Origin: an uncultured archaeon
Lineage (GTDB): Archaea; Asgardarchaeota; Jordiarchaeia; Jordiarchaeales; Jordiarchaeaceae
DNA: 32,000 nucleotides
Assembly: GCA_964510585.1 (NCBI GenBank)
Contig: CAZECW010000062.1
Location: 47,525-79,524, forward strand
Direction of reading: 5' to 3'
This document shows, in pieces, positions 7,169-30,354 of the stretch; the stretch's first letter is position 1; each line of letters begins with the position of its first letter. A model generated the notes under the pieces. That model did not search any database. It was not told where the DNA came from and worked only from the letters and a program-made list of their open reading frames with translations. A program made the position numbers and the translations under genes.

Positions 7169-8839
7169 ATGGAGAAACCGTGGTACAATTCTTGGCCGAA
7201 GGGCCTTCCCAAAACATTAGATTATCCGAATATTCCCCTTCACCAGACTTTGGATGATACTGCAAAGAGACTCCCCAACAAAACATCTTTGATATACTAT
7301 GGCACCGAAATACCCTTCAAAGAGGTTAAGGAAAACGCGGATAAGTTCGCGACGGTATTGGCAGAGATGGGCGTGAAAAAGGGTGACCGGGTCTGCCTGT
7401 ATCTGGAAAACTCGCCTCAGTTTGTAATGGCCTACTATGGAGCCCTAAAGGCAGGAGCTATCGTGGTTCCAGCTAACCCCATGTTTAAAGAAATGGAGCT
7501 GGAATACCAACTCAGTGATTCTGGTTCAGAAACAATAGTTGCACTAGACCACCTATATCCTTATGTCGAAAAGGTGAGAGACAAGGTCGGCCTCAAAAAT
7601 GTGTTCATAACCAACATAGGAGAATATTTCCCAGAAGAGCCAACACTACCCATAATGGATGCTCTAAAAGTGGAAAAAAAGACCTATCCCAAAACAATCG
7701 ACTTCCTGGAGAAACTCGAAGAAACCAAACCAAACCCACCGAAACTAGAATTCAATCCCAAGGAAGACTTGGCACTACTACAATACACCGCTGGAACCAC
7801 AGGCATGCCCAAGGGGGCGATGATCACACACAGTAACATTATGACGAATGTTTACGGAGGCTCCAAGTGGGTGGGAACCACTGATAAAGATATCAGCGTG
7901 GGGGTGCTTCCCTTCTTCCACGCAACGGGCATGGTACATAGTATGTGTAACCCCATACTGGTGGGCGCAACCAGCGTAGTGTTGGCACGGTTCGACCTTG
8001 CGGCGTTTCTTGAAGCCATAAGCAAGTACAGGTGTACACTCTGGGTGGGCATAACCACCATTGCCGTCGCCATTGCCATGTTTGCCGACCCAAAAAAGTA
8101 TGACATGACATCCCTACGATGCAGCTTCGCGGGCGGTGCTCCTCTAGGCCAGGAGGTCATAAAGAAATACAAGGAGATAACTGGTAGTGACATGATTGAG
8201 GGCTATGGCTTGTCCGAATCTATTTCACAGCTCACCATTAATCCTGTTGATAAGCCCAAGTATGGTTCGGTTGGCATCCCAGTATTCGATGTTGACGCCA
8301 AAGTCGTTGACAGTGAAACGGGCACCAAGGAGTTAGGATTTGACCAAGAGGGAGAACTCATATTTAAGGGACCGCAGATTATGAAGGGCTACTGGAAAAA
8401 TCCGGAGAAAACAAAGGAAACACTTAGAGATGGGTGGCTCTACACTGGTGACATTGGAAAAATGGATAAGGACGGGTACATCTGGATAGTGGGACGCAAG
8501 AAGGAGATGATAAATGTTTCAGGATACAAGGTGTGGCCCTTTGAGGTTGAAGATTTCCTATACAAACATGAGGCGGTACAAGAGGTAGGAGTTGTAGGAG
8601 TACCTGATGAGTACAGGGGTGAAACAGTTAAGGCGGTTATTGTACTTAAACCAGAATATAGGGGCAAAGTGACTGAGGAGGACATAATTAAGTGGGCTAA
8701 GGAGAAGATGGCGGCCTACAAGTATCCGAGAATCGTTGAATTCAAAGACTCGCTGCCAAAGAGCGGCGCGGGCAAGATTCTACGAAGGGTTCTATTGGAG
8801 GAACACTTGGAGAAAATGAAAAAATCAAAAGGTAATTAA
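7169..8839 (+). CDS. Long-chain-fatty-acid--CoA ligase family (ANL superfamily), paralog 1
   Basis: YTAGTTGMPKG P-loop, EGYGLSE, YTGDIG, GRKKEMI, PKSGAGKILRR. Start refined to the ATG at 7169 (MEKPWY) after GGAGGAG. Confidence 0.93.
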   Translation: MEKPWYNSWPKGLPKTLDYPNIPLHQTLDDTAKRLPNKTSLIYYGTEIPFKEVKENADKFATVLAEMGVKKGDRVCLYLENSPQFVMAYYGALKAGAIVVPANPMFKEMELEYQLSDSGSETIVALDHLYPYVEKVRDKVGLKNVFITNIGEYFPEEPTLPIMDALKVEKKTYPKTIDFLEKLEETKPNPPKLEFNPKEDLALLQYTAGTTGMPKGAMITHSNIMTNVYGGSKWVGTTDKDISVGVLPFFHATGMVHSMCNPILVGATSVVLARFDLAAFLEAISKYRCTLWVGITTIAVAIAMFADPKKYDMTSLRCSFAGGAPLGQEVIKKYKEITGSDMIEGYGLSESISQLTINPVDKPKYGSVGIPVFDVDAKVVDSETGTKELGFDQEGELIFKGPQIMKGYWKNPEKTKETLRDGWLYTGDIGKMDKDGYIWIVGRKKEMINVSGYKVWPFEVEDFLYKHEAVQEVGVVGVPDEYRGETVKAVIVLKPEYRGKVTEEDIIKWAKEKMAAYKYPRIVEFKDSLPKSGAGKILRRVLLEEHLEKMKKSKGN

Positions 8840-8866
8840 GGTTTTTGGATACGTTTCAATTCAAGT

Positions 8867-8972
8867 AGCCGTTTCACGATATAGTTTCGCCTAATCGACA
8901 GAACTCCAATAAGTTTATAGGCGCAGCTCCCTCTGGAAGTGTCATATCGCTTGAAACGGCTTTCCTTTTTTT
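8867..8972 (+). other. Nested inverted-repeat (multi-stem) structure followed by a T-tract, between the two CoA ligase genes
   Basis: AGCCGTTTCA (8867-8876) pairs with TGAAACGGCT (8952-8961); CGATAT (8877-8882) with ATATCG (8944-8949); inner CGCCTA (8888-8893) with TAGGCG (8918-8923); then TTCCTTTTTTT. Confidence 0.45.
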
Positions 8973-9248
8973 CTATAATATATAAATGGTCAAGTTAATT
9001 GATAAAGCGGCATATAAATTACAAAATGCCATTTTAACTTGAGTACTCGCATAAAAATCAATTACTTAGAAGATAGTTTGAAGACAACCAATTAATTTGG
9101 GAATAGTTTCTATTGCGTGATGACCGTGTTTTTCAGTTTGAGGAGAAGACCTGTTTCCTTTGGTTAGCTACTAGTATGAAAAAACGTTAAATATGTAATA
9201 CAATTTAATTTGAGTTTAGAAAAATTTTTTGTTGAGAAGATGTTTGTG

Positions 9249-10889
9249 ATGGAGAGACCGTGGTTTAAATCTTGGCCTAAGGATTTGCCGAAGTCACTTG
9301 ACTATCCTGAAGTTCCCATATTCACTTTTCTTGAGAACACAGCCAGAAGGGTACCAAAAAAGAAGGCAATAATTTTCTACGGATACGAAGTCACCTACGG
9401 AGAATTGAATGAGTGGAGTGACCGTTTCGCCAACGCGCTTGCCAGTATGGGTGTCAAAAAGGGGGATAGAGTAGGACTTTTCCTGGAGAATTGTCCACAG
9501 TTTATTGTTGCCTACTATGGTGCATTAAAGGCGGGCGCGATTCTGGTTCCCATAAACCCTATGTTTAAAGAGATGGAGGTGGAGAGTCAACTCAACGATT
9601 CGGGAACGGAAACACTGGTCACGCTAGATTTTCTCTATCCTACAATTAGAAATGTGAGGAAAAACACGAAACTGAGAAACATTATTGTAACAAGTTACAG
9701 AGACTTTTTGCCAGAAAAACCCACACTCCCCACGCACATATCCATGGAATATGAGAAGGAAAAATTTCCGGAAACCGTCGAGTTTACTGAACTCCTTAAA
9801 AAGTATGAGGCGAAGCCACCCAAGGTTAGTATCGAGCCTAAAGAGGATTTAGCCCTTCTCCAATACTCTTCAGGAACCACAGGTGAACCCAAGGCAGCAA
9901 TGATAACCCACTACAACGCTGTGGTAAACATTGTGGGCGGTGTGAAGTGGGCAAAAGTCGTAGAAGACGACATAGTGCTTTCTGTTTTGCCACTGTTCCA
10001 TGTTTTGGGAATGCAGCAAACCATGAACTGCTCAATATATATGGGAAACACTATAGTTCTTCTTTCACGTTTCGACTTGGAAGCAATACTGAAAGGCGTG
10101 GAGATGTACAAGTGCACCATTATGGTTAGTATAGCGCCCATAGATCAAGCCATCGCCACGTATCCCTACTCTAAAAATTATGACTTGAGCTCCCTTCGAC
10201 TCTGCGTGTCTGGAGGGGCACCGGTTCCACTGAGTGTTTTTGAAAAATTCAAAGAAGTAACAGGCTGCGAGTTACTTGAAGGGTACGGTCTCAGCGAAAC
10301 AATCTCCCAAGTCACCATTAACCCCCTTGATAGACCCAAACGTGGCTCAGTGGGAATCCCAGTATTCGACGTAGACGCTAAAATAGTGGACATAGAGACT
10401 GGCACCAGGGAGTTGGCACTGGGCGAGGAGGGAGAAATCATTTTTAAGGGGCCCCAAGTAATGAAGGGCTACTGGAACCAGCCTGAGTTAACCAAGGCCA
10501 CAATTCGGGACGGTTGGATTTATACTGGAGACATTGCCAAGATGGATGAGGACGGTTACATATACATTGTGGGACGAAAAAAGGAAATGCTCATAGTTTC
10601 CGGCTACAAGGTTTGGGCCGCTGAAGTCGAACAACTATTAAAGAAGCATCCAGCAGTATACCAGGCAGCCATAGTGGGAGTACCAGATCCCCAGCTAGGG
10701 GAGAGAGTCAAAGCATACGTGGTACTCAGACCAGACTACAAGGATAGAATAACTGAAGAAAAGCTCAAAGAGTGGGCTAAAAGAAAAATGGCAGACTACA
10801 AGTGTCCCAAAGAAATAGAGTTCGTAAACCAGCTGCCAAGAAGCGGGTCCGGAAAAATACTGAAAAGAATGCTAACCCACAAACCATAA
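9249..10889 (+). CDS. Long-chain-fatty-acid--CoA ligase family (ANL superfamily), paralog 2
   Basis: YSSGTTGEPKA, EGYGLSE, YTGDIA, GRKKEML, PRSGSGKILKR. Start refined to the ATG at 9249 (MERPWF) by parallel with paralog 1; the ATG at 9240 is also possible. Confidence 0.93.
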   Translation: MERPWFKSWPKDLPKSLDYPEVPIFTFLENTARRVPKKKAIIFYGYEVTYGELNEWSDRFANALASMGVKKGDRVGLFLENCPQFIVAYYGALKAGAILVPINPMFKEMEVESQLNDSGTETLVTLDFLYPTIRNVRKNTKLRNIIVTSYRDFLPEKPTLPTHISMEYEKEKFPETVEFTELLKKYEAKPPKVSIEPKEDLALLQYSSGTTGEPKAAMITHYNAVVNIVGGVKWAKVVEDDIVLSVLPLFHVLGMQQTMNCSIYMGNTIVLLSRFDLEAILKGVEMYKCTIMVSIAPIDQAIATYPYSKNYDLSSLRLCVSGGAPVPLSVFEKFKEVTGCELLEGYGLSETISQVTINPLDRPKRGSVGIPVFDVDAKIVDIETGTRELALGEEGEIIFKGPQVMKGYWNQPELTKATIRDGWIYTGDIAKMDEDGYIYIVGRKKEMLIVSGYKVWAAEVEQLLKKHPAVYQAAIVGVPDPQLGERVKAYVVLRPDYKDRITEEKLKEWAKRKMADYKCPKEIEFVNQLPRSGSGKILKRMLTHKP

Positions 10890-11061
10890 AACAATACAAT
10901 CGTTCCCACCAAACCGACTTAAGCGTCTCCAAAGATTTTTTATAAAAGATTCATCAAATTCCAAATTTTTTAGTCGCCATTAAAGTTCCTTGCAGAAGTT
11001 TTTAAGTAAGTTTGAGGTTAAAATCTTAAAGCAAAAACTGCTTGAGAAGGAGGACTGTATT

Positions 11062-12243
11062 TTGAGTCAAAGAAAGTATGGTTTCTCAACCCGTTGTGTA
11101 AGAGGCGGTGAAACTCCAGACCCTGTTACTGGCTCTGTTGTTACCCCCATACATCAAACCTCAACTTTTCATTTTGAAAACATGGATGAGGTTCGCTCAG
11201 TAGAAGAGGGATTAAAGGAAGGTTACACTTACACAAGATGGGGCAATCCGACTCAGACCGTAGCTGAAAGAAAATTGGCGGCTATTGAGGGAGGCGAGGA
11301 TGCTCTTTTGGTATCCTCAGGCATGGCTGCTGTGAGCACCACCATTCTGAGCCTAGTTCAAGCCGGTGAAGAAGTCATAGCCACCCGCACACTTTATGGC
11401 GGCACACTCCACCTTTTCCAAAGTCTTCTGCCAAGAATGGGAATAAAGGTACACTTTGTAGACAGTGAGAATGTGAGTCAAGCTGAAAAACTGGTTAATG
11501 AAAAAACAAAAGTAATCTACTTTGAAACCCCAACTAATCCAACCCTCAGCCTTGTAGATATAGCTGAAGCGGTAAGAATCGCAAAAGAAAACAATTTAAC
11601 CTCAGTGATTGACAACACGTTCGCCACCCCCTACAATCAACACCCACTAGAAATGGGAGTGGATGTAGTGATACACAGCGCAACAAAATATTTGGCTGGT
11701 CACGACGACGTAACCGCGGGAGTAATAATTGGGAAAAGATTATTCTGCGCCCTAGCTAGGGCGGTGATGGTGCACATGGGAAGCTGCATCGACCCCTTCG
11801 CCGCCTACCTTCTAATAAGAGGCCTAAAAACACTAGATGTAAGAATGGAAAGACATAACAAAAATGCGCTGGAAGTGGCAAGATTCCTTGAAAACCACAA
11901 AAAGATTAACAGGGTATACTATCCGGGGCTGGAAAGCCACCCCCAACACCAGCTGGCGAAGCGGCAGATGAGCGGGTTCGGCGGAATGGTAACATTCGAC
12001 GTAAAAGGCGGAATGGAGGCAGCAATAAACGTTATAGACAGATTCCAGCTCATCCTAAGAGCAGTAAGCCTAGGGGGAGTACAGTCACTAGCCTGCATGC
12101 CCGTGTTAACCTCACACATAGGACACCCCCCAGAAGAACTGGCAAAAGCAGGAATAACCATGGGAATGATAAGACTATCGGTAGGAATAGAGAACGCAGA
12201 AGACATAATCCAAGACCTAGACCAAGCATTATCAGCCATATAG
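11062..12243 (+). CDS. Cys/Met metabolism PLP-dependent enzyme (methionine gamma-lyase / cystathionine gamma-synthase family)
   Basis: YTRWGNPT, SSGMAA, FETPTNP, DNTFATP, HSATKYLAGH (PLP lysine), AVSLGGVQSL, IRLSVGIE. Start refined to the TTG at 11062 after AGGAGG. Confidence 0.92.
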   Translation: MSQRKYGFSTRCVRGGETPDPVTGSVVTPIHQTSTFHFENMDEVRSVEEGLKEGYTYTRWGNPTQTVAERKLAAIEGGEDALLVSSGMAAVSTTILSLVQAGEEVIATRTLYGGTLHLFQSLLPRMGIKVHFVDSENVSQAEKLVNEKTKVIYFETPTNPTLSLVDIAEAVRIAKENNLTSVIDNTFATPYNQHPLEMGVDVVIHSATKYLAGHDDVTAGVIIGKRLFCALARAVMVHMGSCIDPFAAYLLIRGLKTLDVRMERHNKNALEVARFLENHKKINRVYYPGLESHPQHQLAKRQMSGFGGMVTFDVKGGMEAAINVIDRFQLILRAVSLGGVQSLACMPVLTSHIGHPPEELAKAGITMGMIRLSVGIENAEDIIQDLDQALSAI

Positions 12244-17896: not shown

Positions 17897-19108
17897 ATGT
17901 TTATCAGATATGTTAGGGATAAAGGGAGATGTGTGGATTGCGGTTTTTGTGAAACAGTAATTCATTGCCCCAGTCCCCAGTATTGCATAGGCTGTGAAGC
18001 GTGTTTTCTCGGTTGCCCTTATAATGCCCGAAAACCAGTATCAGACACTAAACCCAGGGGTAAATGTAGAATTATCATTGATGGTTCGGAGTTTGAAGTT
18101 CCAGAGAGAATTACTGTTAAGAGAGCACTTGAACTAGCGGGATATAGGTTCACCAGATTTCCAGAGAAAAACGCTTTTTTCGCTCCCTGTAATACGGGGG
18201 GATGCTACAGCTGCTCCGTTATCATAAACGGTGAATTGAAACCCTCTTGCCACGTTGGGGTGGAAAACGGTATGATCATTGAAACAGTTACGGAGGGAAA
18301 AACTCCTTACAGGATAGTTGAGGGTTTCTCTCCCCACAGTGTTGGAGGCGTTGGAACGCCCTACTGGCTTAAAACGGGCATGGGTTACATTGAGGTGGCG
18401 GCTTTTGTTGCTGGATGCAATCTGCGCTGCGGAACCTGCCAAAATTATCATGTCACCTATAATAGTTCGGGTTTGCCTCTCACACCTAGGGAGGCCGCCG
18501 CAAATCTCACTTACATGCGTAAACGTTTCCGCGTTGACAGAATGGCTATAAGTGGGGGAGAAGCAACACTAAACCACAGGTGGCTCTTAGAATATTTTAA
18601 GGAGCTTAAAAGGTTAAACCCTGATTCTAAAGCTCGACTCCACCTTGACACGAATGCCACAATACTGACGAAGGAGCGCATAGACGACCTTATAGAGGTG
18701 GGGGTTACAGATATTGGCCCTGACCTTAAGGCTCTAAGAGTGGAAACCTTCCAGAAACTGACTAACATTGATGATCGTGCACTGGCTGAAATTTACCTGA
18801 GAACCTCTTGGGAGGCAGTGAAATACATAGCGGATAACTATTATCCAGAAAGAGTTTTCATGGGGGTGGGGATTCCATACAACAAATTCATTCACCCTGA
18901 CTTGGATGAGATTTATGAAATGGGACTGAAAATTGCGAGTATTAATCCAGAGATACAGGTGTGTGGATTAGACTATAGACCAGAATTCAGGAAAAGAGAT
19001 ATTATCCAACCAACACCTGAAGAAATGAAGAGGGTCAAAAAGACACTGGAGGAAGCTGGACTTAAAAAAGTAATTGTTCAAACAAGCCGTGGACACATAG
19101 GTCCTTAA
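17897..19108 (+). CDS. Radical SAM protein (activase-like, COG1180-type) fused to N-terminal 4Fe-4S ferredoxin-like and 2Fe-2S domains
   Basis: CVDCGFC...CP / CIGCEAC...CP; then CNTGGCYSC...SC (2Fe-2S type); then GCNLRCGTCQN (CxxxCxxC), ISGGEAT, LDTNA. Confidence 0.88.
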   Translation: MFIRYVRDKGRCVDCGFCETVIHCPSPQYCIGCEACFLGCPYNARKPVSDTKPRGKCRIIIDGSEFEVPERITVKRALELAGYRFTRFPEKNAFFAPCNTGGCYSCSVIINGELKPSCHVGVENGMIIETVTEGKTPYRIVEGFSPHSVGGVGTPYWLKTGMGYIEVAAFVAGCNLRCGTCQNYHVTYNSSGLPLTPREAAANLTYMRKRFRVDRMAISGGEATLNHRWLLEYFKELKRLNPDSKARLHLDTNATILTKERIDDLIEVGVTDIGPDLKALRVETFQKLTNIDDRALAEIYLRTSWEAVKYIADNYYPERVFMGVGIPYNKFIHPDLDEIYEMGLKIASINPEIQVCGLDYRPEFRKRDIIQPTPEEMKRVKKTLEEAGLKKVIVQTSRGHIGP

Positions 19109-19157: not shown

Positions 19158-21095
19158 ATGAAGAGTGGTGATAATTTGTCCAAGTTGTTTGAACCGTGTA
19201 ATATTGGAAGTATGGAACTCAGGAACAGGTTAGTTATGCCACCGATGGGTACGAACTTCTCATCTGAGGATGGTTCGGTGACTCAGCGTGCCATAGAGTA
19301 CTATAGGGAGCGTGCGCGTGGCGGAGTGGGTCTAGTTATCGTTGAAGGAGCTTATGTTCATCCTTTGGGCAAGGGTTCAAACCTGCAGATGAGCCTTACC
19401 GGTGATGACAAGATTCCGGGTCTCTCCAAACTCGCTAAAGCCATACAGGCTGAAGGGGCTAAAGCTGCGATTCAACTATTTCATGCGGGGAGGCAGGTTT
19501 CCTCTATGATTATTGGAGCCCAGCCTGTTTCTGCTTCTGATGTTCCCTGTATGCTGGTTAGGGAGACTCCACGTCCTATGACCCTTGAGGAAATAGAAGA
19601 AACTATTGAGGCTTTTGGGGAGGCTGCAAGAAGGGTAAAGGTTGCTGGATTCGATGCGGTGGAGATACACGCTGCTCATGGTTATTTGATTAATCAGTTT
19701 TTATCCCCTTTAACCAATCTGCGGAGGGACAAGTATGGTGGAAGCTTTGAGGGGAGAACAAGATTCCTAGTTGAGATAATTGAGAGAATAAGGAGAAAGG
19801 TTGGAAAAAATTTTCCAGTTATTTGCAGGATGAATGGTAGTGACTTCTTTGAGGGTGGTATCACTCTGGAGGAGGCCAAGAGAATTGCGCAGACTGCTGA
19901 GGCGGCGGGGGTTGACGCCATTCATGTTTCGGGTGGAATCTATGACTCGGAGAATGGTGAGGCAACCGCACCTATGTGGCTTCCCAGAGGATTTATGGTG
20001 CCCTTAGCCCAAGGGATTAAAAAGGTTGTAAATGTTCCGGTGATAGCTGTAGGTCGAATAAACGATGTGAAACTGGCCGAGAAAATTTTGGAGGAGGGGC
20101 AGGCAGACCTGGTCTCTATGGGGAGAGCTTTGATAGCTGATCCAGAGCTTCCAAGAAAGGCTATGGAGGGAAGATTGGGGGAGATTAGGCCATGTATAGC
20201 TTGTAATGAAGGGTGCATAAATATGCTGCTTTTTCTCAAATCTGTAACTTGTGTTCTAAATGCCGCTGTGGGGAGAGAGGAAGAGTTCCGAATTCAGCCG
20301 GAGAAGAAACCCAAAAAAGTTTTGGTTGTGGGCGGTGGAGTGGGAGGAATGGAATTTGCAAGAGTCGCCGCTCTGAGGGGACACCGGGTTTCACTCTATG
20401 AGAAGACAATGGAGCTCGGAGGACAAGTGCTTCTGGCTTCGGTACCCTCATATAAGTATGAGTTAAGAAGCATAGTCCCCTACTTTAAACACGAGCTTGA
20501 GAGGCTGGGAGTCAGCATTCATCTGGGAGAGGAAATTTCAGAGTCCAAAATTTATGAGCTGGAACCAGAAGTGGTTTGTATTGCTACTGGATCTAGTTTG
20601 GTTCTTCCCAGCATTCCGGGAATCGATGGCGGTAATGTTGTCCTAGCCACAGATGTTCTGGCTGGGAAAGCGCAGGTGGGAGAAAAGGTGGTTATTCTTG
20701 GCGGCGGTGAGATCGGCCTTGAAACTGGCTATCACCTAGCCGAACAGGGCAAAAAGGTCACCATAATTGAGCAGATGAAGAGGGTAGCTACAGAAATGAT
20801 TCCCGCATTCAACTACTATGTTAGACACAAATTTGCGGGCTTCGGCGGAAAACTCATAACTCAGGCAAAGGTAGTCGAGGTAACATCAGAGGGAGCAATT
20901 TATGAGAAGGAGGGACAGAGAAACTTGGAAAAAGCAGACACGGTAGTTGTGGCACTAGGAACAGTGCAAAATAGAAGCCTTTACGAGAATTTGAAGGATA
21001 AATTTCCAGAAGTATATCTGGTTGGAGATGCAGCGGAGCGGGGAAAAATAATGAATGCAATACATAGCGCCGCAGAGACGGCAAGGAAAATATAG
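19158..21095 (+). CDS. NADH:flavin oxidoreductase (old yellow enzyme barrel + 4Fe-4S + FAD/NAD domains; 2,4-dienoyl-CoA reductase / 2-enoate reductase / BaiCD-like)
   Basis: LRNRLVMPPM, EIHAAHGYLINQFLSP, NLRRDKYGGS, CIACNEGC...C (Fe-S), VVGGGVGG and ILGGGEIG dinucleotide-binding motifs. Confidence 0.92.
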   Translation: MKSGDNLSKLFEPCNIGSMELRNRLVMPPMGTNFSSEDGSVTQRAIEYYRERARGGVGLVIVEGAYVHPLGKGSNLQMSLTGDDKIPGLSKLAKAIQAEGAKAAIQLFHAGRQVSSMIIGAQPVSASDVPCMLVRETPRPMTLEEIEETIEAFGEAARRVKVAGFDAVEIHAAHGYLINQFLSPLTNLRRDKYGGSFEGRTRFLVEIIERIRRKVGKNFPVICRMNGSDFFEGGITLEEAKRIAQTAEAAGVDAIHVSGGIYDSENGEATAPMWLPRGFMVPLAQGIKKVVNVPVIAVGRINDVKLAEKILEEGQADLVSMGRALIADPELPRKAMEGRLGEIRPCIACNEGCINMLLFLKSVTCVLNAAVGREEEFRIQPEKKPKKVLVVGGGVGGMEFARVAALRGHRVSLYEKTMELGGQVLLASVPSYKYELRSIVPYFKHELERLGVSIHLGEEISESKIYELEPEVVCIATGSSLVLPSIPGIDGGNVVLATDVLAGKAQVGEKVVILGGGEIGLETGYHLAEQGKKVTIIEQMKRVATEMIPAFNYYVRHKFAGFGGKLITQAKVVEVTSEGAIYEKEGQRNLEKADTVVVALGTVQNRSLYENLKDKFPEVYLVGDAAERGKIMNAIHSAAETARKI

Positions 21096-21231
21096 GAAGC
21101 ATTAGTAATTCTCTGTCGCTTCATCGTCTAGTTTGGTTGTTTCATTTTATAGGGATGTGCTTTCTGTAGGATTCCTGCCTTTTTTAAGATATTTTTATGT
21201 TGGATTTTAAATTCTTTTGAACTATTCTACG

Positions 21232-21249
21232 AAAAGGTTATAACATTTT
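21232..21249 (+). promoter_or_regulatory. BRE/TATA promoter of the GRE operon, embedded in a near-perfect 18-bp palindrome
   Basis: AAAAGGTTATAACATTTT (one mismatched pair); TTATAA lies about 50 bp upstream of the GTG start; GGAGGG ribosome-binding site at 21279-21284. Confidence 0.5.
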
Positions 21250-21289
21250 TTTCGTTGATGAAATATTAAGCTAATTATGGAGGGTTTAC

Positions 21290-23674
21290 GTGTTAAAGGA
21301 AACTGAAATTTGGGGACCTTCCGAGAACTTGTCCCCGAGGGTTAAGCGTCTCAGAGAGGAATACTGGAATTTTGATAAACGCGAATACTTTAGAAATGAA
21401 GCCATTTCCTACACTACGGGTACTCCTTGGGACACTACTTGGATTCAGCACAATTTTGCCAGTGCTCCGGAGCTTCTGGTTTACGGTAATGCGGTGGAGG
21501 ATTCCTTTAACGCCATGGCTGTAAAGGTGGATTTGCCTGAAGGGTTTTGGGATGAGCCTCAGATTGTGCGCCAAGCAATATTCTTTCGAAACGTCTTAAG
21601 GATTCACCCAGTATACATTCTTGAGGGAGACCTCATCGCTGGAGCCCATTACGCGGTGGCAATGTCTCTTTGCCTAAACCAAGCTGAAGCTGCTGATTGG
21701 AAGGCAAGAGACACCGAATACATGAAGAGACTAAGGCATTATCTTGATTTGGGTCTGGGAACCACTGGGCCGATTCCGGGCCACATAATTCCAGACTATC
21801 CTAAGCCTCTCAGAGTGGGCTTTAAAGGCATTAAGGAAGAAGCGGAGGAAGAGCTGAAAAAAGCAACTGAACAAGAGAAAAAAGATTTTCTGAGGGCAGT
21901 CATAATTTGCTGTGAAGCAGTAAGGGAGTTTGCCCACCGACACGCAGAGGAAGCAAGGAGACAGGCGGCGGCTGAGAAGGACCCTAAAAGGAAGGAAGAG
22001 CTCCTAGAGATAGCGAGGATTTGTGACAAGGTTCCATGGAATCCTGCAGAGAGCTTCTGGGAAGCGGTTCAGGGCGTCTGGTTCACCCACATGCTGAGCA
22101 ACATGTCGGAGTCCTATATCGGTGCGGGCCTTTCCCATGGTAGATTTGACCAGTACATGTATCCCTATTATGAGAAGGATATAAGAGAGGGAAAGCTTAC
22201 TCGGGAACAAGCCAAGGAGATTCTGCAATGCTTCTGGATAAAACACAACTATGCCTATGACTACTTTGGTTTGCGGCTGGGAAGGCAAGGTATAACTTCT
22301 GGTTACGGCCAGCTTATGACCATAGGCGGCCTTGGCCGAGACGGAAGGGATGCGACCAATGATTTGTCTTGGCTTTTGATAGATGTTATTGAGGAGATGA
22401 ATCTTTTAGAACCGAAAACCAACATTAGAATCCATAAGGATACACCTGAAGCCTTCCTTATGAGGCTTGTTGAAGCCATACAAAGGTGTAAAGGTGGATC
22501 ACCCTTCCTACTCAACTTTGACAGCATCTGTGTAAAGGCTTTGGAGTGGGAGGGTTTATCCCATGAGGAGGCTTTGGATTACGGGGTGGTAGGCTGCCTT
22601 GAAAACACTTCCCAAGGAAATGATCGGTCAGGAACTGTCGATGTTAACGTTAACCTAGCTAAAGCCGTTGAGCTTGTTTTGAATAATGGAAAGGATATGC
22701 TGACGGGAGAGCAAATTGGTCCAGAAACCGGTGACCCGACCAGCTTTAAAACTTTTGAGGAATTTATAGACGCTTATAAGATTCAACTTAAAAACCTTCT
22801 TAGACTTCTCATAGAGTTGAACATGGACTTCGACACTCTGAGAGCCACCTATGAGAGGGTGCCCTTCCTTTCAGCCATAGTGGGTGACTGTATAAAGAAG
22901 GGTAAAGATGTAAATGCCGGGGGGCCGAAATACAACTTTACCACAGTTGAGGGAGTGGGAATAGCAACGGTTGCCGATTCCCTAGCAGCGGTTAAAAAGC
23001 TGGTATTCGAAGAAAAGAAAATCACCATGCAGGAGCTTATCCAAGCAATAAAAGCCGACTTTATAGGATACGAGAAACTGCGCCAAATGCTGATTAACGA
23101 TGCACCCAAATTTGGAAACGACGATGACTACGTAGACCTGATAGCAAGGGATATCTCCCGCTTCTGGTCGGAGGAAGTTTTCAAGTATCAAGCTCCAGTT
23201 AGTGGCAGACGCTACCGCGCAGGATACCTCTCTTGGAACTACTTCATAGACTGGGCTCCCAAAACGGCTTCCACACCGGATGGAAGAACCCGTGGAACCT
23301 ACCTTTCCAACGGTGTACAGCCAGTTCAGGGTAGAGACAAATCCGGCCCTACAGCCTGCCTGAAGTCCGTAGCTAAATTGGGATTTGACGTAACCCCTAA
23401 CGGCGCTTCCTGCGTCATACAGTTCAGCCCCTCATCACTAAGGGACAGGGAACACCTTAAAAAACTTGCCTCCCTGCTCAGAGCCTTCGACATTCTAGGC
23501 GGAACCGCCCTAATGACCAATGTAATCGATGCCGCCACACTCAGAGAAGCCCAAAAACATCCCGAAAAGTACCTAAACCTACTGGTAAGAGTAACAGGAT
23601 ACAGCGCGTACTTTGTAACTCTGGGAAAAGCAATACAGGAAGAAATAATCGCACGAACAGAACACGCCATATAG
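21290..23674 (+). CDS. Glycyl radical enzyme, non-PFL (PFL2/eliminase-like), substrate unassigned
   Basis: LLVRVTGYSAYF glycyl loop (Gly770), VVGCLENT Cys loop (Cys436, Glu438), GHIIPDY, GRFDQYMYPYY, PKFGNDDDYVD, TPDGR. Confidence 0.95.
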   Translation: MLKETEIWGPSENLSPRVKRLREEYWNFDKREYFRNEAISYTTGTPWDTTWIQHNFASAPELLVYGNAVEDSFNAMAVKVDLPEGFWDEPQIVRQAIFFRNVLRIHPVYILEGDLIAGAHYAVAMSLCLNQAEAADWKARDTEYMKRLRHYLDLGLGTTGPIPGHIIPDYPKPLRVGFKGIKEEAEEELKKATEQEKKDFLRAVIICCEAVREFAHRHAEEARRQAAAEKDPKRKEELLEIARICDKVPWNPAESFWEAVQGVWFTHMLSNMSESYIGAGLSHGRFDQYMYPYYEKDIREGKLTREQAKEILQCFWIKHNYAYDYFGLRLGRQGITSGYGQLMTIGGLGRDGRDATNDLSWLLIDVIEEMNLLEPKTNIRIHKDTPEAFLMRLVEAIQRCKGGSPFLLNFDSICVKALEWEGLSHEEALDYGVVGCLENTSQGNDRSGTVDVNVNLAKAVELVLNNGKDMLTGEQIGPETGDPTSFKTFEEFIDAYKIQLKNLLRLLIELNMDFDTLRATYERVPFLSAIVGDCIKKGKDVNAGGPKYNFTTVEGVGIATVADSLAAVKKLVFEEKKITMQELIQAIKADFIGYEKLRQMLINDAPKFGNDDDYVDLIARDISRFWSEEVFKYQAPVSGRRYRAGYLSWNYFIDWAPKTASTPDGRTRGTYLSNGVQPVQGRDKSGPTACLKSVAKLGFDVTPNGASCVIQFSPSSLRDREHLKKLASLLRAFDILGGTALMTNVIDAATLREAQKHPEKYLNLLVRVTGYSAYFVTLGKAIQEEIIARTEHAI

Positions 23675-23720: not shown

Positions 23721-24644
23721 ATGAAAGAGGCGGTAATATTTAACATAGAGAGATTCTCTACAGAGGACGGACCGGGAATAAGGACAGTAGTCTTCATGAA
23801 GGGGTGCCCCCTAAAGTGCGTTTGGTGCCACAATCCAGAGGGGCAATCCTTCCAGCAGGAGATATTCGTTTTCGACAAAAGATGCATTGGTTGTGGAGAC
23901 TGCGTCCAAATCTGTCCAGAAAAGGCAATAATAGTTGAGGATAAAACCCCCAAAATAGATAGGGAAAAGTGCAACAGTTGCGGCAAATGCGCCGAAGTCT
24001 GTATTCCCAAAGCAATAGAGGTTGTGGGGAAAAAAATGACTCCCGACGAAGTGCTCAAAGAAGTGGAAAAAGACAGAGTTTTCTATGAAACCTCAAATGG
24101 AGGGGTTACTCTCACGGGAGGGGAACCCATCTCACAAATAGAATTCCTAGAGGAGTTCCTTAAAAAATGCAAAGAGGCAGGGATTCACACCGCCATAGAG
24201 ACCAGCGGCTGCACCAAGTGGGAAACCTATGAGAGAATATTGCCCTACACCGATTTGGTTATGTACGACTTGAAAGAAATGGATGCGGAGAAATCCGTGG
24301 AATACGTGGGCATCAAGCCAGACCTAATTCTGGAGAACGCCGAAAAAATGAGCAGAGTAAAACCCATGTGGATCCGTGTACCCGTCATTCCCGGCTACAC
24401 CGCCAACGAGGACAACGTAAGGAAAATAGCGGAGTTCATAGCGAAAAAGCTTCCCAGCGTTGAGAGAATTGATCTCCTACCCCACCACCGCCTCGGAGAG
24501 CCCAAATACAAAAGTTTGGGCAGAAAATACGCCCTTGACGGTGTAAAGCCCCCAGAAAAAGAGGAGATGCTCAAATACAAGAAAATCATGGAATCCATCG
24601 GTCTAAAAAACGTAATCGTAGTGGGACATGAAGATAAAAGTTGA
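23721..24644 (+). CDS. Glycyl-radical enzyme activating enzyme (long type, with 2x[4Fe-4S] ferredoxin insert)
   Basis: EDGPGIRTVVFMKGCPLKCVWCHNPE, CIGCGDCVQICP and CNSCGKCAEVC inserts, GGVTLTGGEP, HTAIETSG, IRVPVIPG; 46 bp after the GRE gene. Confidence 0.95.
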   Translation: MKEAVIFNIERFSTEDGPGIRTVVFMKGCPLKCVWCHNPEGQSFQQEIFVFDKRCIGCGDCVQICPEKAIIVEDKTPKIDREKCNSCGKCAEVCIPKAIEVVGKKMTPDEVLKEVEKDRVFYETSNGGVTLTGGEPISQIEFLEEFLKKCKEAGIHTAIETSGCTKWETYERILPYTDLVMYDLKEMDAEKSVEYVGIKPDLILENAEKMSRVKPMWIRVPVIPGYTANEDNVRKIAEFIAKKLPSVERIDLLPHHRLGEPKYKSLGRKYALDGVKPPEKEEMLKYKKIMESIGLKNVIVVGHEDKS

Positions 24645-24679: not shown

Positions 24680-25090
24680 ATGGTTAAAATGCCGCCCAAA
24701 GTTCTGGAAAAATTCATGGACCTCAACACCATCAAATTTTTGGCCACAGTGGACGATGAGGGAAAACCCAACGTGGTCTACATACTCTCCATGATAGCAA
24801 TAGATGATGAAACACTAGCCTTCGCAGACCTAGCACTGAACAAAACCAAGAAAAACCTACTCTCAAACGGCAGATGCGCAGTCAGCGTACTCGCCAACAA
24901 AGAAATACAATACCAAGTAAAAGGAAAATTCATAGGCTTTCAAGACTCAGGACCACTATACGACATGTTCAACGAAGTACCACAACTAAAATACAACGCC
25001 TACTTCAGACCCCCAGCAATAGGACTAATAAAAGTAGAAGAAGTATACCTCGGATCCATCGTACCATCACCAGGAAAAAGAATCGCCTAA
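24680..25090 (+). CDS. Pyridoxamine 5'-phosphate oxidase-family FMN-binding split-barrel protein
   Basis: FLATVDDEGKPNVV, TKKNLLSNGR.AV, YQVKG; 35 bp after the activase gene. Confidence 0.85.
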   Translation: MVKMPPKVLEKFMDLNTIKFLATVDDEGKPNVVYILSMIAIDDETLAFADLALNKTKKNLLSNGRCAVSVLANKEIQYQVKGKFIGFQDSGPLYDMFNEVPQLKYNAYFRPPAIGLIKVEEVYLGSIVPSPGKRIA

Positions 25091-25644
25091 AAACCAAAAC
25101 AGCTCCCACCAAAAAAACCCACCCCACTTTATTCCACAAAACCCAATTCAATTACAGCCATTCAAACAAAGTCACCGATTCCCTCCAAATTACTTTTCAA
25201 ACACAAACGGGTAAAAATAAAGGTGTCAAAAAGAAAATCACGACTCCAATTTAAAGATACGAATCATAATCCTCAGAACCAGCCACATTACCTACTTAAT
25301 TAATATAAAAAGAAACCCCCTTCACACACCAAAATTAACAATTTAAATTTACAAGCAGACATGCCAACTTTTCCTTAAAAGGAAAAAAGAATCCAACGCC
25401 ACAATTTGATAAAAACCAGCAACTCCACGAGACAGACCTGAAGCAAAGCACGCCAGTTTTAGCCGCAAATAAGCACAAAAAATCACAAAAAACACCCTTC
25501 CGAACCAAAAAATAGAAAAATTATGAAAAACATACACAAAAACACAACACAAACAATTTTCAACCCGTAAACCAAAAACTATATATTCCAATAAAAAATG
25601 TTTATCTAGCAATCCCTAACAAAAAAATTAGCGAGGAACCAAAG

Positions 25645-25857
25645 ATGGTAGTAAAAGAATTCAAATCCGGAGACATAGTAATCAAAATAGACTACGACAA
25701 GTGCAACGGCGACGGAGAATGCGTAGACGTCTGCCCGGTGGACGTATACGAACTAGTGGAAGGCAAATCCACCGCCCCACGAGTCGAAGACTGCACCGAA
25801 TGCTGTGCGTGTGTCGAATCATGCCCCGAGGGGGCCATTCAGCACAGTTCTTGCTAG
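25645..25857 (+). CDS. Small dicluster ferredoxin
   Basis: 70 aa; CNGDGECVDVCP and CTECCACVESCP motifs. Confidence 0.92.
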   Translation: MVVKEFKSGDIVIKIDYDKCNGDGECVDVCPVDVYELVEGKSTAPRVEDCTECCACVESCPEGAIQHSSC

Positions 25858-26959: not shown

Positions 26960-27856
26960 TTATTGTTCTCTTGGAACGTTGAAGTATTCGTAGAAGCCTC
27001 CTCTGCTTCCCGGTTTCTGTCGGGGGTCTCCTATGTATCCGGCTATCACCATTTTCCTTAGCAGCATGGGTGGCTTATATGCAGGATTGCCTGTTTCATT
27101 GTAACAGTATTCTAATACGTGATATATGGTGTCTAGACCCACAAAGTCTGCTAGTACGAAGGGACCCATGGGCCAACCGAATCCTAATCTCACCATTGTG
27201 TCTATTTCCTTCACTCCCGCTATTCCTAGTTCCAGTAGTCTTATGATTTCGGCAACTGTGTAGCAGATGAATCTGGTTGTGAAGAATCCTGGTCCGTCCT
27301 TTGCCTCCACTGGAACTTTGCCCATTTTTACCGCTAGATCATGGATTACTTTGTAGGTTTCGTCTGAGGTCACGGCGCCTCTTATGATTTCCACAAGTTT
27401 CATGACGTGTGCGGGGTTGAAGAAGTGCATTCCTATGAATTTTTCTGGGCGTTTGGTGGCTGAGGCTTGATCCGTTATCATTAGGGAGGATGTGTTTGAA
27501 GCAAATATGGTGTGTTTGGGACATATTTCATCGAGCTGTTTCCATGTTTTCTTTTTTAGTTCAAGGTTTTCGGGAATTGCTTCTATCACAATGTCTGCGT
27601 TTGCCGCTGCCTCCTTTAGGTTTGTTGTACCCTTTATTTTCGCCATTGTTGCTTCAAGTTGTTCTTTAGTCATTTTTCCCTTTTCCACAGCCCTACTTAA
27701 ACTACCCCTTATTCTCTCCATGGATCTTTTAACTATCTCATCTGATATCTCGTAAAAAGTGGTGTTGTAGCCTAGTCCGGCGCAAAGCTGTACAATTCCT
27801 GAGCCCATTATGCCGCATCCTAAAACGCATATATTTTTTACATCTTCAATTTTCAT
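26960..27856 (-). CDS. 3-hydroxyacyl-CoA dehydrogenase (3-hydroxybutyryl-CoA dehydrogenase family)
   Basis: VLGCGIMGSGI, VIEAIPENLELK, FASNTSSL, IGMHFFNPA (catalytic His), GWPMGPFVLADFVGLDT. Start refined to the ATG at 27856; the GTG at 27865 is possible. Confidence 0.93.
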   Translation of the reverse strand: MKIEDVKNICVLGCGIMGSGIVQLCAGLGYNTTFYEISDEIVKRSMERIRGSLSRAVEKGKMTKEQLEATMAKIKGTTNLKEAAANADIVIEAIPENLELKKKTWKQLDEICPKHTIFASNTSSLMITDQASATKRPEKFIGMHFFNPAHVMKLVEIIRGAVTSDETYKVIHDLAVKMGKVPVEAKDGPGFFTTRFICYTVAEIIRLLELGIAGVKEIDTMVRLGFGWPMGPFVLADFVGLDTIYHVLEYCYNETGNPAYKPPMLLRKMVIAGYIGDPRQKPGSRGGFYEYFNVPREQ

Positions 27857-28058
27857 TTTTTCCACTCCTCTTCTACCAATTTTTGAAAACCTTAATGGTG
27901 AGTATTATACTTAAAACTTTTCTTAAACTTACCGAAAACAAATCCTCGAAATCCCCGAGAAATTTTATTATGGGGATGGGCAATATTTTAAAAAGATGCG
28001 TTAGAGGCAAATAAAAAGCGTTTGCCAGAAAAATTTGATGGAAAATGATTTAAGGTGA

Positions 28059-28853
28059 TTGGTTTTGGAGTTTGAAGACATAATTTATGAGAAGAAGAAT
28101 GGAGTGGCCAGAATCACCATAAATAGGCCTCAAGCCCTCAACGCCTTCAGATCGAAAACTCTGGACGAGATGACCGCAGCCTTTGAAGACGCCGAGGAAG
28201 ACGAGGATATCAGAGTAGTTGTTTTAACAGGTGCTGGAGATAGAGCCTTCTGCTCTGGAGGCGACGTGTCCGAAATGGGAAAACTGACCCCCGCCGTCGG
28301 AAGAAAGTTCCTAGGCAAGTGTTTGAAGCTCTCCACAACTATGAGAAACCTTTCAAAGCCCATAATTGCTAGAATCAACGGCTACTGTCTAGGGGGAGGA
28401 AACGAACTCAACATGTTCTGCGATCTCTCCATAGCTTCAGAGAAAGCAATACTAGGCCAGGTGGGTCCCCGTGTGGGCAGTGTCCCTATTTGGGGCGGCA
28501 CCCAAATGTTGCCGAGGGTGGTGGGTGAGAAGAAGGCGAGAGAGATGATATTTCTCTGTAGGAGATACACTGCGAAGGAAGCCGAGGCAATGGGCCTGGT
28601 GAATAAGGTTGTGCCGCATGAACAGTTGGACGCTGAGGTGGATAAGTGGTGCGAGGAAATTAAGGCTCTTAGTCCCCAAAGTTTAAAGCTTTCAAAAATA
28701 TCCCTGAATTTTGGCTCAGATCTTCTATATCCATCCTTCGTTCACGGCAGGGATATGCTGGCTTTAATATATGGTTCCTACGAGCTGACCGAGGGAATGG
28801 AAGCTTTCATGCAGAAAAGAAAGCCGGTTTGGAAACCGGAGAAAAGGGACTAG
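28059..28853 (+). CDS. Crotonase-superfamily enzyme, BadI/MenB-like subgroup (candidate beta-ketoacyl-CoA hydrolase or enoyl-CoA hydratase)
   Basis: ITINRPQALNA, GDRAFCSGGD, GYCLGGGNEL, GQVGPRVGS, RVVGEKKAREM.FLCRRY. The stop overlaps the convergent gene at CTAG (28850-28853). Confidence 0.88.
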   Translation: MVLEFEDIIYEKKNGVARITINRPQALNAFRSKTLDEMTAAFEDAEEDEDIRVVVLTGAGDRAFCSGGDVSEMGKLTPAVGRKFLGKCLKLSTTMRNLSKPIIARINGYCLGGGNELNMFCDLSIASEKAILGQVGPRVGSVPIWGGTQMLPRVVGEKKAREMIFLCRRYTAKEAEAMGLVNKVVPHEQLDAEVDKWCEEIKALSPQSLKLSKISLNFGSDLLYPSFVHGRDMLALIYGSYELTEGMEAFMQKRKPVWKPEKRD

Positions 28854-30109
28854 GCTGAGGCTTTAATTTCCCTCCTTTTTTTGTTTGCGTCGCTTATTAT
28901 TTCTCGGCCTATGAGGTAGGTTAGTATCTCTGTCGTTCCCCCTGCAATCTTCATCATTCGAGCGTCTCTATAATACTGTTCCACCGGGAATTTTGTGGTG
29001 TAGCCGATGCCCCCCAATATTTGTAGAGCATCATTACACACTTCTACGCTCATGTTGGTTGCGAAAAGTTTTGCTTGAGCTGACTCCTTGCTGGCAGTTT
29101 TGCCTGCATCAATTAGTCTTGCGGCTCTCAAGGCTAGGAGGCGGGCGGCCTCTATTTTAGTGTTCATATCTGCCAGTTTGAAGCTTACCGCCTCAAAGTT
29201 GGATATGGGTTGGTGGAACTGCACCCTAAGAAGCGAATATTCCAATGCAATTTCATAGGCGCGACGCGCGTGTCCGATGGCTTCGCCTGCAATAACCGTT
29301 CTCTCAATGTCTAATTCGTCGAGAAGAATCCGGAAACCTTCATTTTCCCTCCCCACAAGGTTTTCTTTGGGAACCTTTATGTTGTTGAAGCGCATAAGGC
29401 CATTCCTTGCACCCTTCATACCCAAGAGCTCATAGTGTTCCACAACCTCGAATCCCTCCATTTCTCTCTCAACCACGAAGCAACTCATGCCTTTATGGGG
29501 ATGCACGCTCCTATCAGTTATGGCAAATGTAGTGTTGACCTCCGCCTCTCCACAATTGGTTATGAATCTTTTTTCACCATTCAACAGGTAATAGTCGCCA
29601 CTTCGGACCGCCGTTGTCTGCATGCGGGCAGTGTCGCTGCCCACTTGGGGCTCTGTAATCACTATGGCCCCTATTTTTTCACCTGAAAGTATGGGTCTCA
29701 AGTATTTCTCCTTAAGATAGTCAGTGCCAAATCTGCAGATGGGGATGCCGCAGAGCATATTTGCAACTCTGGCGGTGCTGGTCACCGGGCTCACCGCGGC
29801 CAGTTCTTCGGAAACTATGAGGTCTTTGGTGACTCCGTTTCCCTCATTTAGGCCTCCCCACTCTTTGGGGAAGGGGTAGCTGACATATCCTCTCTTAGCT
29901 ATTAGCTGTAAAGCTTTTCGGGGATAAACATTGTTTTTTTCAAACTGGTGAGTCATGGGTGCGATTTCCCTGTCCAAAAAGGCTCTTACTTCTCTTCTGA
30001 ACGAGTTCTCCTCATCTGTAAATAGCCATAGACTCTCATCCGAAACACTATATCCCTGAGGTAATATCAGGTCCTGATACTCAATAGGGGTGAGTCTCTC
30101 CACTTTCAT
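28850..30109 (-). CDS. Acyl-CoA dehydrogenase
   Basis: ITEPQVGSD, LLNGEKRFITN, RVQFHQPI..FEAV.FKLADM, ILGGIGY...PVEQYYRDAR..KIAGGT.EI. The MCAD-type Glu is absent (IAGGT); the Glu in DIERT fits the LCAD/IVD position. Start refined to 30109, downstream of GGAGG. Confidence 0.93.
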   Translation of the reverse strand: MKVERLTPIEYQDLILPQGYSVSDESLWLFTDEENSFRREVRAFLDREIAPMTHQFEKNNVYPRKALQLIAKRGYVSYPFPKEWGGLNEGNGVTKDLIVSEELAAVSPVTSTARVANMLCGIPICRFGTDYLKEKYLRPILSGEKIGAIVITEPQVGSDTARMQTTAVRSGDYYLLNGEKRFITNCGEAEVNTTFAITDRSVHPHKGMSCFVVEREMEGFEVVEHYELLGMKGARNGLMRFNNIKVPKENLVGRENEGFRILLDELDIERTVIAGEAIGHARRAYEIALEYSLLRVQFHQPISNFEAVSFKLADMNTKIEAARLLALRAARLIDAGKTASKESAQAKLFATNMSVEVCNDALQILGGIGYTTKFPVEQYYRDARMMKIAGGTTEILTYLIGREIISDANKKRREIKASA

Positions 30110-30354
30110 TAATGCTTCCTCCATAATCAGATTACTCTCACTCAGGAGGCGAATTTTTAAATAAGTCTAGATGTAACTAACTAATAAACCTCTGTACTGA
30201 TTTCTAATAATTTTCTGAATATCACCCTTCCTGCCAAAACCAGCCACAATATAACTGAGGGATTCATATTTAGAGTTAGAGGATTTCGAGTTATAGATTT
30301 AAATTGAAGTTACTAATTAATAGTAGGTAATGATGATTATTGGAGATTGATTTT

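Follow-up and report, generated by a model that had tools for sequence, protein, structure and literature searches.

An eliminase-like glycyl radical enzyme clade with a PNPOx-like partner, a distinctive pocket and an N-terminal sequence of its own

According to a 2026 review, all glycyl radical enzymes (GREs) of the pyruvate formate-lyase (PFL)-like type with known function are bacterial, and whole clades, the archaeal ones above all, are without assignment (PMC13450708). The eliminases and isomerases among them are defined by a CxE motif, the Glu of which hydrogen-bonds the substrate hydroxyl, and in glycerol dehydratase (GD) His164 protonates the leaving hydroxyl (PMC13450708). Here, a GRE gene at 21290-23674 in a 32,000-nucleotide (nt) stretch of archaeal DNA (the window) was analysed together with the two genes that follow it, which encode an activating enzyme (activase) and a small PNPOx-like protein. 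The GRE belongs to a widespread, eliminase-like clade that is set apart by three features: its N-terminal sequence is divergent, its pocket is distinctive and it has the PNPOx-like partner. It is likely, on balance, to be a functional CxE-type enzyme of a large uncharacterised clade, catalysing radical 1,2-elimination (or a related isomerisation) beside the hydroxyl of a small substrate. Coordinates are positions in the window unless another locus or contig is named, and residue numbers are those of the GRE.

21290-23674, + strand: GRE, 794 amino acids (open reading frame translation, Pfam, NCBIfam, tree, AlphaFold model)
21279-21284, + strand: GGAGGG ribosome-binding-like site (direct reading of the sequence)
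21290-21769, + strand: N-terminal region of the GRE, about 160 residues, clade-specific sequence with ordinary GRE fold (Pfam match begins at residue 163)
23721-24644, + strand: GRE activase, 307 amino acids, radical SAM protein with CPLKCVWC and two ferredoxin-like four-cysteine clusters (TIGR02494, Pfam, motifs)
24680-25090, + strand: PNPOx-like split-barrel protein, 136 amino acids, short single-domain form (PF01243, PNPOx_N, E 1e-10)

Sequence, fold and active site of the GRE

The GRE gene starts with GTG, and the GGAGGG site lies 5 nt upstream of it; an ATG at 21277 lies in another frame. An A/T-rich intergenic region of 195 nt (21096-21289) separates the gene from an upstream OYE-type oxidoreductase gene. 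The protein matched the PFL-like domain PF02901 (E 3.6e-168, residues 163-649) and the Gly_radical domain PF01228 (E 1.8e-27). The catalytic Cys loop GCLE is composed of residues 435-438 (nt 22592-22603) and contains Cys436 (22595-22597) and Glu438 (22601-22603), while the glycine loop RVTGY (residues 767-771) carries the radical-site Gly770 (23597-23599). His165 is encoded at 21782-21784. Other motifs are ITSGYGQL (335-342), DRSGTVDVN (445-453), YLSWNY (646-651) and the N-terminal segment AISYTTGTPWDTTWIQHNFASAPE (38-61). A preliminary description of this DNA had called the gene a GRE, and the call stands: all its motifs were found in place, with a single catalytic Cys436, Glu438 and Gly770. 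The motifs are invariant or nearly so across 36 clade members (55-89% identity) and are therefore selected features rather than products of chance. The activase proposed for the following gene, 46 nt 3' of the GRE, was confirmed as well. It is of the typical non-PFL kind (TIGR02494, 369.6 bits against a cut-off of 174), with CPLKCVWC and two ferredoxin-type Cys clusters, and its sequence is that of the type predicted to install the radical on Gly770.

To place the GRE among characterised enzymes, named genes from annotated plasmid and megaplasmid records were used as references. Identity was 38% to GD, 37% to the microcompartment 1,2-propanediol dehydratase (PD), 35% to CutC, 34% to PflD, 33.5% to HypD, 32% to YbiW and 24% to PflB. 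The best solved structure is 36% identical, and the best PDB sequence match was the Clostridium butyricum GD (467 bits, residues 164-793 only). No NCBIfam equivalog cut-off was reached: the scores against the cut-offs were 542/1100 for HypD (NF043068), 451/1050 for CutC (TIGR04394), 527/1000 and 444/1000 for the sulfonate enzymes (HpsG, NF048011, and NF048009), 426/1109 for the PflD type, 358/1100 for indoleacetate decarboxylase (IAD, NF033718), 306/1150 for 4-hydroxyphenylacetate decarboxylase (HPAD, NF033715) and 129.5/994 for PFL (TIGR01255). The PFL2 subfamily model was also missed (591/678). The highest NCBIfam scores came from dehydratase and lyase models. In a maximum-likelihood tree, 24 clade members grouped on a single branch (SH-aLRT 100, stem 0.64) that excluded every reference, and the nearest neighbour of this branch was another uncharacterised paralog of the same genome, with weak support (83). 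The earlier view that the protein fits no characterised GRE is borne out by these scores, by identities of at most 38% to the aligned references, by the separate branch and by different substrate residues; among the references compared, there was no GRE of high identity with all its substrate residues kept in this protein.

The AlphaFold model of the GRE (pLDDT 86.3, pTM 0.89) was found closest to eliminases and isomerases (Z 35.6-37.1), followed by decarboxylases (32.4-32.9), X-succinate synthases (29.9-31.6) and PFL (about 27). A Foldseek search agreed in placing eliminases and isomerases nearest. As modelled, the fold would match known GREs over residues 9-782.

His165, Cys436 and Glu438 are invariant in the 36 clade members and align with His164, Cys433 and Glu435 of GD, which respectively protonate the leaving group, form the thiyl radical and deprotonate the hydroxyl. 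The equivalent of His165 is present in GD, PD, HypD, YbiW and PflD. It is absent in PflB, which has Arg, in CutC, which has Asp, and in the two paralogs of this genome that lack the Glu. The GRE has the C436-L-E438 motif of the CxE class and, like the C-O-cleaving members of that class, a general-acid His after barrel strand 1. The adjacent Cys-Cys of the formate lyases (PFL, TdcE) is absent; GC436LE stands where PflB has ACC. The kept Cys, Glu and His, with eliminases and isomerases as the closest structures, therefore make radical 1,2-elimination most likely. The contrast of GCLE with GCVE, offered before as a diagnostic, had to be given up, since the class motif is CxE (PMC13450708), and both Escherichia coli YbiW and one clade member have GCIE.

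The residues around the substrate are different. His281, Ser282, Asp447 and Tyr640 of GD, which we take with this numbering to be the diol-binding residues, correspond to Ala279, Gly280, Val450 (with Asp451 adjacent) and Leu647, so the diol-binding mode is not conserved. A two-residue insertion relative to GD beside Ala279/Gly280 bears the invariant E274-S275-Y276. The Asp of CutC that contacts trimethylammonium is not kept, as His165 occupies its place. Nor is the sulfonate-anchoring Arg/Gln/Arg set of the C-S lyases and sulfopropanediol dehydratases (IslA, IseG, HpsG, HpfG): Arg672 of HpsG corresponds to Gly645, and Gln187 and Arg183 to His165 and Pro161, the latter two extrapolated 2-6 residues before the start of the HMMER alignment. 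Invariant residues of the GRE include, besides E274-S275-Y276, Q341, N439-T440, D445/S447/T449/D451/N453 and L647/W649/Y651. Judged from these alignments, the substrate pocket is predicted to differ from that of every characterised member.

In the proposed reaction, Glu438 would deprotonate the adjacent hydroxyl to give a ketyl-type radical. The neighbouring C-O bond (less likely a C-N bond) would then break with His165 as the acid, and the product radical would regain hydrogen from Cys436. The PNPOx-like protein, as a partner dedicated to the GRE, would work alongside it. The mechanism class is probably known and the substrate new. The idea of a new GRE chemistry in an archaeon needs revision on both counts: judged by the Cys/Glu/His triad and the nearest structures, the chemistry is of a known type, that of eliminases or isomerases, with only the substrate being new, and the clade spans many bacterial and archaeal phyla.

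The N-terminal 160 residues showed 17-20% identity to the reference GREs, compared with 35-43% over the remainder. Within the clade the region is kept, including W8, L14, L21, R22, R31, N36, E37, G44, D48 and others. In the VIA alignment, residues 13-780 of the model were superposed on 8-782 of GD (Z 37.1, root-mean-square deviation 2.8 Å, 705 residues). The segment earlier described as atypical is therefore divergent in sequence but has the fold of a normal GRE N-terminal region. In 151 Asgard genomes only two GRE clades, both PNPOx-linked, matched the clade profile from positions 3-13, whereas other Asgard GREs (660 bits or less) matched it from about 140-190 onward. The two groups with the N-terminal signature are exactly those with a PNPOx-like neighbour.

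The clade, its sister clade and the PNPOx-like partner

Thousands of full-length homologues of the GRE, 56-62% identical, occur in metagenomes, and a scan of about 186,000 species genomes found the signature motifs GYLSWNY and DRSGTVDVN in 407. Archaeal carriers are Asgard (Freya-, Jord-, Atabey-, Hel- and Thorarchaeota), Thermoplasmatota and Nezhaarchaeota. Bacterial carriers include Chloroflexota, Actinomycetota, Thermodesulfobacteriota, Acidobacteriota and others, those of the first three phyla inhabiting sediments, aquifers and hot springs. GREs of 97% identity occur in relatives named Candidatus Freyarchaeota/Jordarchaeia (Asgard), and hot-spring DNA metagenomes were the only metagenomes found to contain the DNA of the window. 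Among the 151 Asgard genomes, 54 carry the clade (30, including 3 fragments) or a sister clade (24).

The sister clade is 43% identical and retains GHII, ESYPGPG, GINSGFGQL, GCLENT-QGNDRSGTV, LSWNY and RVTGYNAYF. A tandem PNPOx-like gene adjoins its GRE in 15 of 16 loci, 14 of which also have the activase. In two Asgard loci of this clade (L101:2978-8159 of genome G146 and L103:2750-8664 of G040), the order is GRE, tandem PNPOx-like gene, SCP2 lipid-carrier-like gene and activase; the start of the PNPOx-like gene overlaps the GRE stop, and a GH38 alpha-mannosidase-like gene lies upstream of the module. SCP2 was seen in sister-clade loci only (3 of 16).

In the window, the PNPOx-like gene lies 35 nt 3' of the activase. 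Downstream genes were counted in 58 loci with at least 2.5 kb of 3' sequence, over a span of 4 kb. The PNPOx-like gene was found 3' of the GRE in 56 of them and the activase in 54. Usually the partner consists of two tandem split-barrel domains, about 270 amino acids in all, and the 136-residue single-domain form is a minority. In the Asgard sample, the partner was matched strongly, with 130 bits or more, in 30 genomes, and 29 of the 30 also have a clade GRE, whole or as a contig-end fragment. Two complete Atabeyarchaeia chromosomes retain both genes 19-24 kb apart. In a complete Atabeyarchaeia chromosome (L102, G012:C1:2522000-2531000) an amine-oxidase-family flavoprotein gene precedes the unlinked PNPOx-like gene (L102:4470-4877) by 113 nt, and a TnpB/Cas12f-like gene adjoins the latter, which suggests that a transposon-associated rearrangement split it from the GRE. 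The genome of the window has two PNPOx_N genes in all, one of which adjoins the GRE, and its other four GRE paralogs have no PNPOx-like neighbour. Because of the linkage counts, the co-occurrence of unlinked genes, the pairing in the sister clade and the single PNPOx-linked GRE in this genome, the partnership is regarded as specific, old and maintained by selection. The statement that no small Fe-S subunit is encoded here had overlooked this conserved small partner gene; it was right in that the partner is not an Fe-S subunit.

The partner was modelled (pLDDT 85.7) as a split barrel of the FMN/F420-binding protein type. Its nearest structures are HupZ, small FMN-binding proteins (Swol_0183 and the D. 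vulgaris FMN-bp), F420 reductase and the prenyl-FMN maturase PhdC. The alignment of partners retains K19-F20, G28, N31 and a K55...N59 motif, the last presumably resembling the flavin-phosphate site of the PNPOx family. The partner probably binds flavin. CofD and CofG of F420 biosynthesis are encoded in the genome, therefore F420 is a possible cofactor too, a point that does not discriminate between the readings. The most likely role of the partner, we infer, is electron handling, either by reduction of a carbonyl or imine product or by feeding the activase. By analogy with HypD and P5C reductase it may be a reductase of the GRE product. Flavodoxin is the electron donor to PFL-AE, and the partner may likewise donate electrons to the activase here. 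It may also be a bound subunit. When longer proteins that include the partner were sought, in a word-limited and so weak search, one tandem form was the only result. A search of the literature for GREs with a PNPOx partner yielded only LssP, an unexplained PNPOx-like protein encoded in one operon with limonenylsuccinate synthase (PMC12583861), plus an unrelated cluster (PMC6849830).

The same evidence bears on the strongest alternative, a new GRE reaction type, which is considered unlikely. Here the flavoprotein-like protein would take part in catalysis itself, as an integral subunit or as a redox partner, for example in redox-coupled cleavage or reductive dehydroxylation, and the N-terminus would be its docking site. 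Just as doubtful is the fuller version, a two-component system with chemistry new to GREs: acting on a metabolite common among subsurface anaerobes, the GRE and the PNPOx-like protein would break a C-O or C-N bond by radical chemistry in obligatory coupling with a redox step of flavin or F420, again with docking at the N-terminus. The partner is indeed linked with the GRE even more closely than the activase is, as the counts of 56 and 54 out of 58 indicate. It follows the GRE directly, with no activase nearby, in three loci (L005, L031 and L039), and in some loci of the sister clade it separates the GRE from the activase. The restriction of the N-terminal signature to the two PNPOx-linked clades and a pairing that predates the split of these 43%-identical clades are consistent with such a complex. 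However, an integral subunit is disfavoured by the lack of any fusion of the partner with GRE or activase among about 96 loci, by the 19-24 kb between the genes in the complete Atabeyarchaeia chromosomes and by catalytic residues which are the ordinary eliminase set. Apparent fusions of 320-564 amino acids in GC-rich loci were rejected as artefacts of open reading frame calling, the activase and partner being in different frames. A complex prediction of the GRE with the PNPOx-like protein scored 0.14, the mark being 0.32, and carries no weight in either direction.

Reaction type and gene neighbourhood

Several points weigh against the preferred reading of a CxE eliminase with a dedicated partner. 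HupZ, the closest solved relative of the partner, binds heme, which makes flavin binding by the partner less certain. Two parts of the AlphaFold2 model of the GRE are poor, namely the loop 326-338 and the glycine loop, where the block-mean pLDDT is 39-64 from residue 761 onward. The invariant residues that would line the pocket were assigned by aligning the GRE with solved enzymes, and the diol-binding residues of GD are replaced. Glu at Cys+2 is shared with GRE decarboxylases, so CxE alone is no proof of elimination. Clustering of the neighbourhoods of 80 loci revealed no general neighbour beyond activase and partner and gave no pointer to the substrate, and no transporter or aldehyde-handling gene is conserved around the GRE loci.

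Decarboxylation of an arylacetate or a related acid is improbable. HPAD has the Glu at Cys+2 (Cys503/Glu505), IAD, PAD and AAD need no small subunit, and the GRE matches the indoleacetate and hydroxyphenylacetate decarboxylase models with E values of 1e-106 and 4e-91. These matches nevertheless score well under the eliminase models (358 and 306 bits against 542 and 527), and the structural similarity is lower (Z 32.4-32.9 against 35.6-37.1). The dehydratase His is conserved in the GRE, and no aromatic-acid pathway genes are conserved near its loci.

More improbable still is a hydrocarbon-activating, alkylsuccinate-synthase-like enzyme. Papers on environmental genomics have put forward such a function for GREs called 'PflD-like' in Chloroflexi, Actinobacteria, Bathyarchaeota, Thorarchaeota and Lokiarchaeota, and the taxonomic range of the GREs in 10.1101/400804 resembles that of the present clade. 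An acyl-CoA dehydrogenase gene occurs within 8 kb of the GRE in 17 of the 80 loci, and the window contains beta-oxidation genes with two acyl-CoA synthetases. The link to acyl-CoA dehydrogenase is confined to Actinomycetota, Chloroflexota and Acidobacteriota, though, and gives a weak hint of a connection to acyl-CoA metabolism. The GRE has the polar CxE and His catalytic set, Glu included; the Cys loop of X-succinate synthases (BSS/MASS) is described as hydrophobic and Glu-less. Solved X-succinate synthases are more distant in structure (Z 29.9-31.6) than eliminases and isomerases, and no small beta or gamma subunit genes are conserved beside the GRE.

The function of PFL, implied by database names of homologues ('pflD', 'formate C-acetyltransferase') and by the Freyarchaeia genome paper, in which pflD is taken to lead pyruvate to acetyl-CoA (PMC11291895), can be dismissed given the missing Cys-Cys pair, the TIGR01255 score of 129.5 against 994, the 24% identity to PflB and the position of PFL as the most distant PFL-like structure; the public PFL annotations of the GRE are almost certainly wrong.

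The other features of the window and the paralogous GREs are listed below.

17897-19108, + strand: radical SAM protein, 403 amino acids, with N-terminal 4Fe-4S and 2Fe-2S modules (profile matches)
19158-21095, + strand: OYE-type FMN/FAD oxidoreductase, 645 amino acids, of the 2,4-dienoyl-CoA reductase/BaiCD/enoate-reductase type (PF00724 and PF07992)
25645-25857, + strand: 2x[4Fe-4S]-type ferredoxin, 70 amino acids (two CxxCxxCxxxCP motifs)
Genome G000, C117:7276-9795 (-), C125:11061-14048 (-), C172:3970-6420 (+) and C158:4344-6716 (-): other four GREs (loci L009-L013)

Lineage-limited neighbours in the 80 loci are acyl-CoA dehydrogenase, FGGY kinase, GNAT, B12-radical SAM, amine-oxidase-like, OYE reductase and ferredoxin genes. 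The OYE gene lies upstream of the GRE in Freyarchaeota/Jordarchaeia relatives only (4 of the 80 loci, and L001), and its protein scored 576/825 against the BaiCD model. The radical SAM gene ends 49 nt 5' of the OYE gene and was found in one related locus of the 80. The ferredoxin, about 555 nt 3' of the PNPOx-like gene, is conserved in close relatives only; a homologue lies near the GRE in 2 of the 80 loci, and a small Fer4 gene is also present in L001. It may carry electrons for the module. The segment between the PNPOx-like and ferredoxin genes (25091-25644) is composed almost entirely of A and C, with an AT skew of 0.28-0.29 over 23-26 kb, and the A/C-rich stretch yields a spurious low-complexity reading frame at 24874-25254. 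Further upstream (7058-12243) are the two acyl-CoA synthetases and a PLP enzyme of Cys/Met metabolism, and downstream (26960-30124) are genes for 3-hydroxyacyl-CoA dehydrogenase, enoyl-CoA hydratase and acyl-CoA dehydrogenase, which together give beta-oxidation-like surroundings. The adjacent reading frames 1531-1878 and 1881-2471, in different frames, carry positions 2-69 and 74-245 of an alpha/beta-hydrolase profile, as would be expected if a single gene had been frameshifted or misread in sequencing.

In all, five GREs of the PFL2 type are encoded in the genome, and no NCBIfam equivalog cut-off is reached by any of them. Two of the paralogs have GCVEPT loops (839 and 995 amino acids, the latter with a long N-terminal extension), and two lack the Glu (GCVYIE and NCMVPT) and are 49% identical to each other. 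Lacking the Glu, the last two are candidates, on sequence grounds, for non-eliminase chemistry. Three of the four adjoin their own activase.

Significance and comparison with known systems

The GRE clade is one of the unassigned clades noted in the 2026 review and, with 407 species genomes, it is not rare. Current metabolic reconstructions assign such enzymes to pyruvate formate-lyase (PMC11291895) or to hydrocarbon activation (10.1101/400804); both labels conflict with the active site of the GRE, and both feed models of subsurface carbon flow and Asgard physiology. GRE, activase and partner form a defined three-gene unit, which may reveal a new way to support or complete GRE catalysis. If the two-component, redox-coupled alternative were true, an archaeal PFL-like GRE would for the first time have a function assigned to it. 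The present analysis adds three findings: GRE and partner genes co-occur even where unlinked, there is a sister clade with the pairing, and the N-terminal signature matches the partner linkage.

The small subunits of other GREs (gamma of HPAD; beta, gamma and delta of BSS/MASS) resemble the PNPOx-like protein in being small proteins genetically tied to one GRE clade. They are Fe-S or small structural proteins, whereas the partner here is a PNPOx-like split barrel and mostly a tandem of about 270 amino acids.

The PFL2 of Archaeoglobus fulgidus (2F3O) is, to our knowledge, the only structurally studied archaeal PFL-like GRE. It shares with the present GRE an archaeal source and an eliminase-like fold (Z 36.3), and its function is debated. 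It is not close to it, however, since its score of 417 bits is no better than that of bacterial eliminases.

HypD (6VXC) gives the best-scoring NCBIfam equivalog for the GRE (542 bits), a Z of 36.9 and the same CxE and His. Its operon, with the GRE followed by a product reductase (P5C reductase), offers a possible analogy for the PNPOx-like partner. The score is about half the cut-off of 1100, though, and the identity is 33.5%. The Asp of WD(A/F) and the Tyr after the Cys loop of HypD are not kept in the GRE, and the partner here is a split-barrel protein and not ProC.

The whole-length fold is shared with GD (C. butyricum DhaB1; 1R8W/1R9D) and with the GRE 1,2-propanediol dehydratases (5I2A, 9RCO). 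The equivalents of His164, Cys433 and Glu435 of GD and the RVxG glycine loop are kept, and an adjoining activase with two extra Fe-S clusters is found in both GD and the present system. In contrast, the pocket residues are replaced, E274-S275-Y276 is inserted, the N-terminal 160 residues are about 19% identical and the GRE stands on a separate long-stemmed branch. Its locus has no alcohol dehydrogenase or microcompartment genes and carries the PNPOx-like partner instead.

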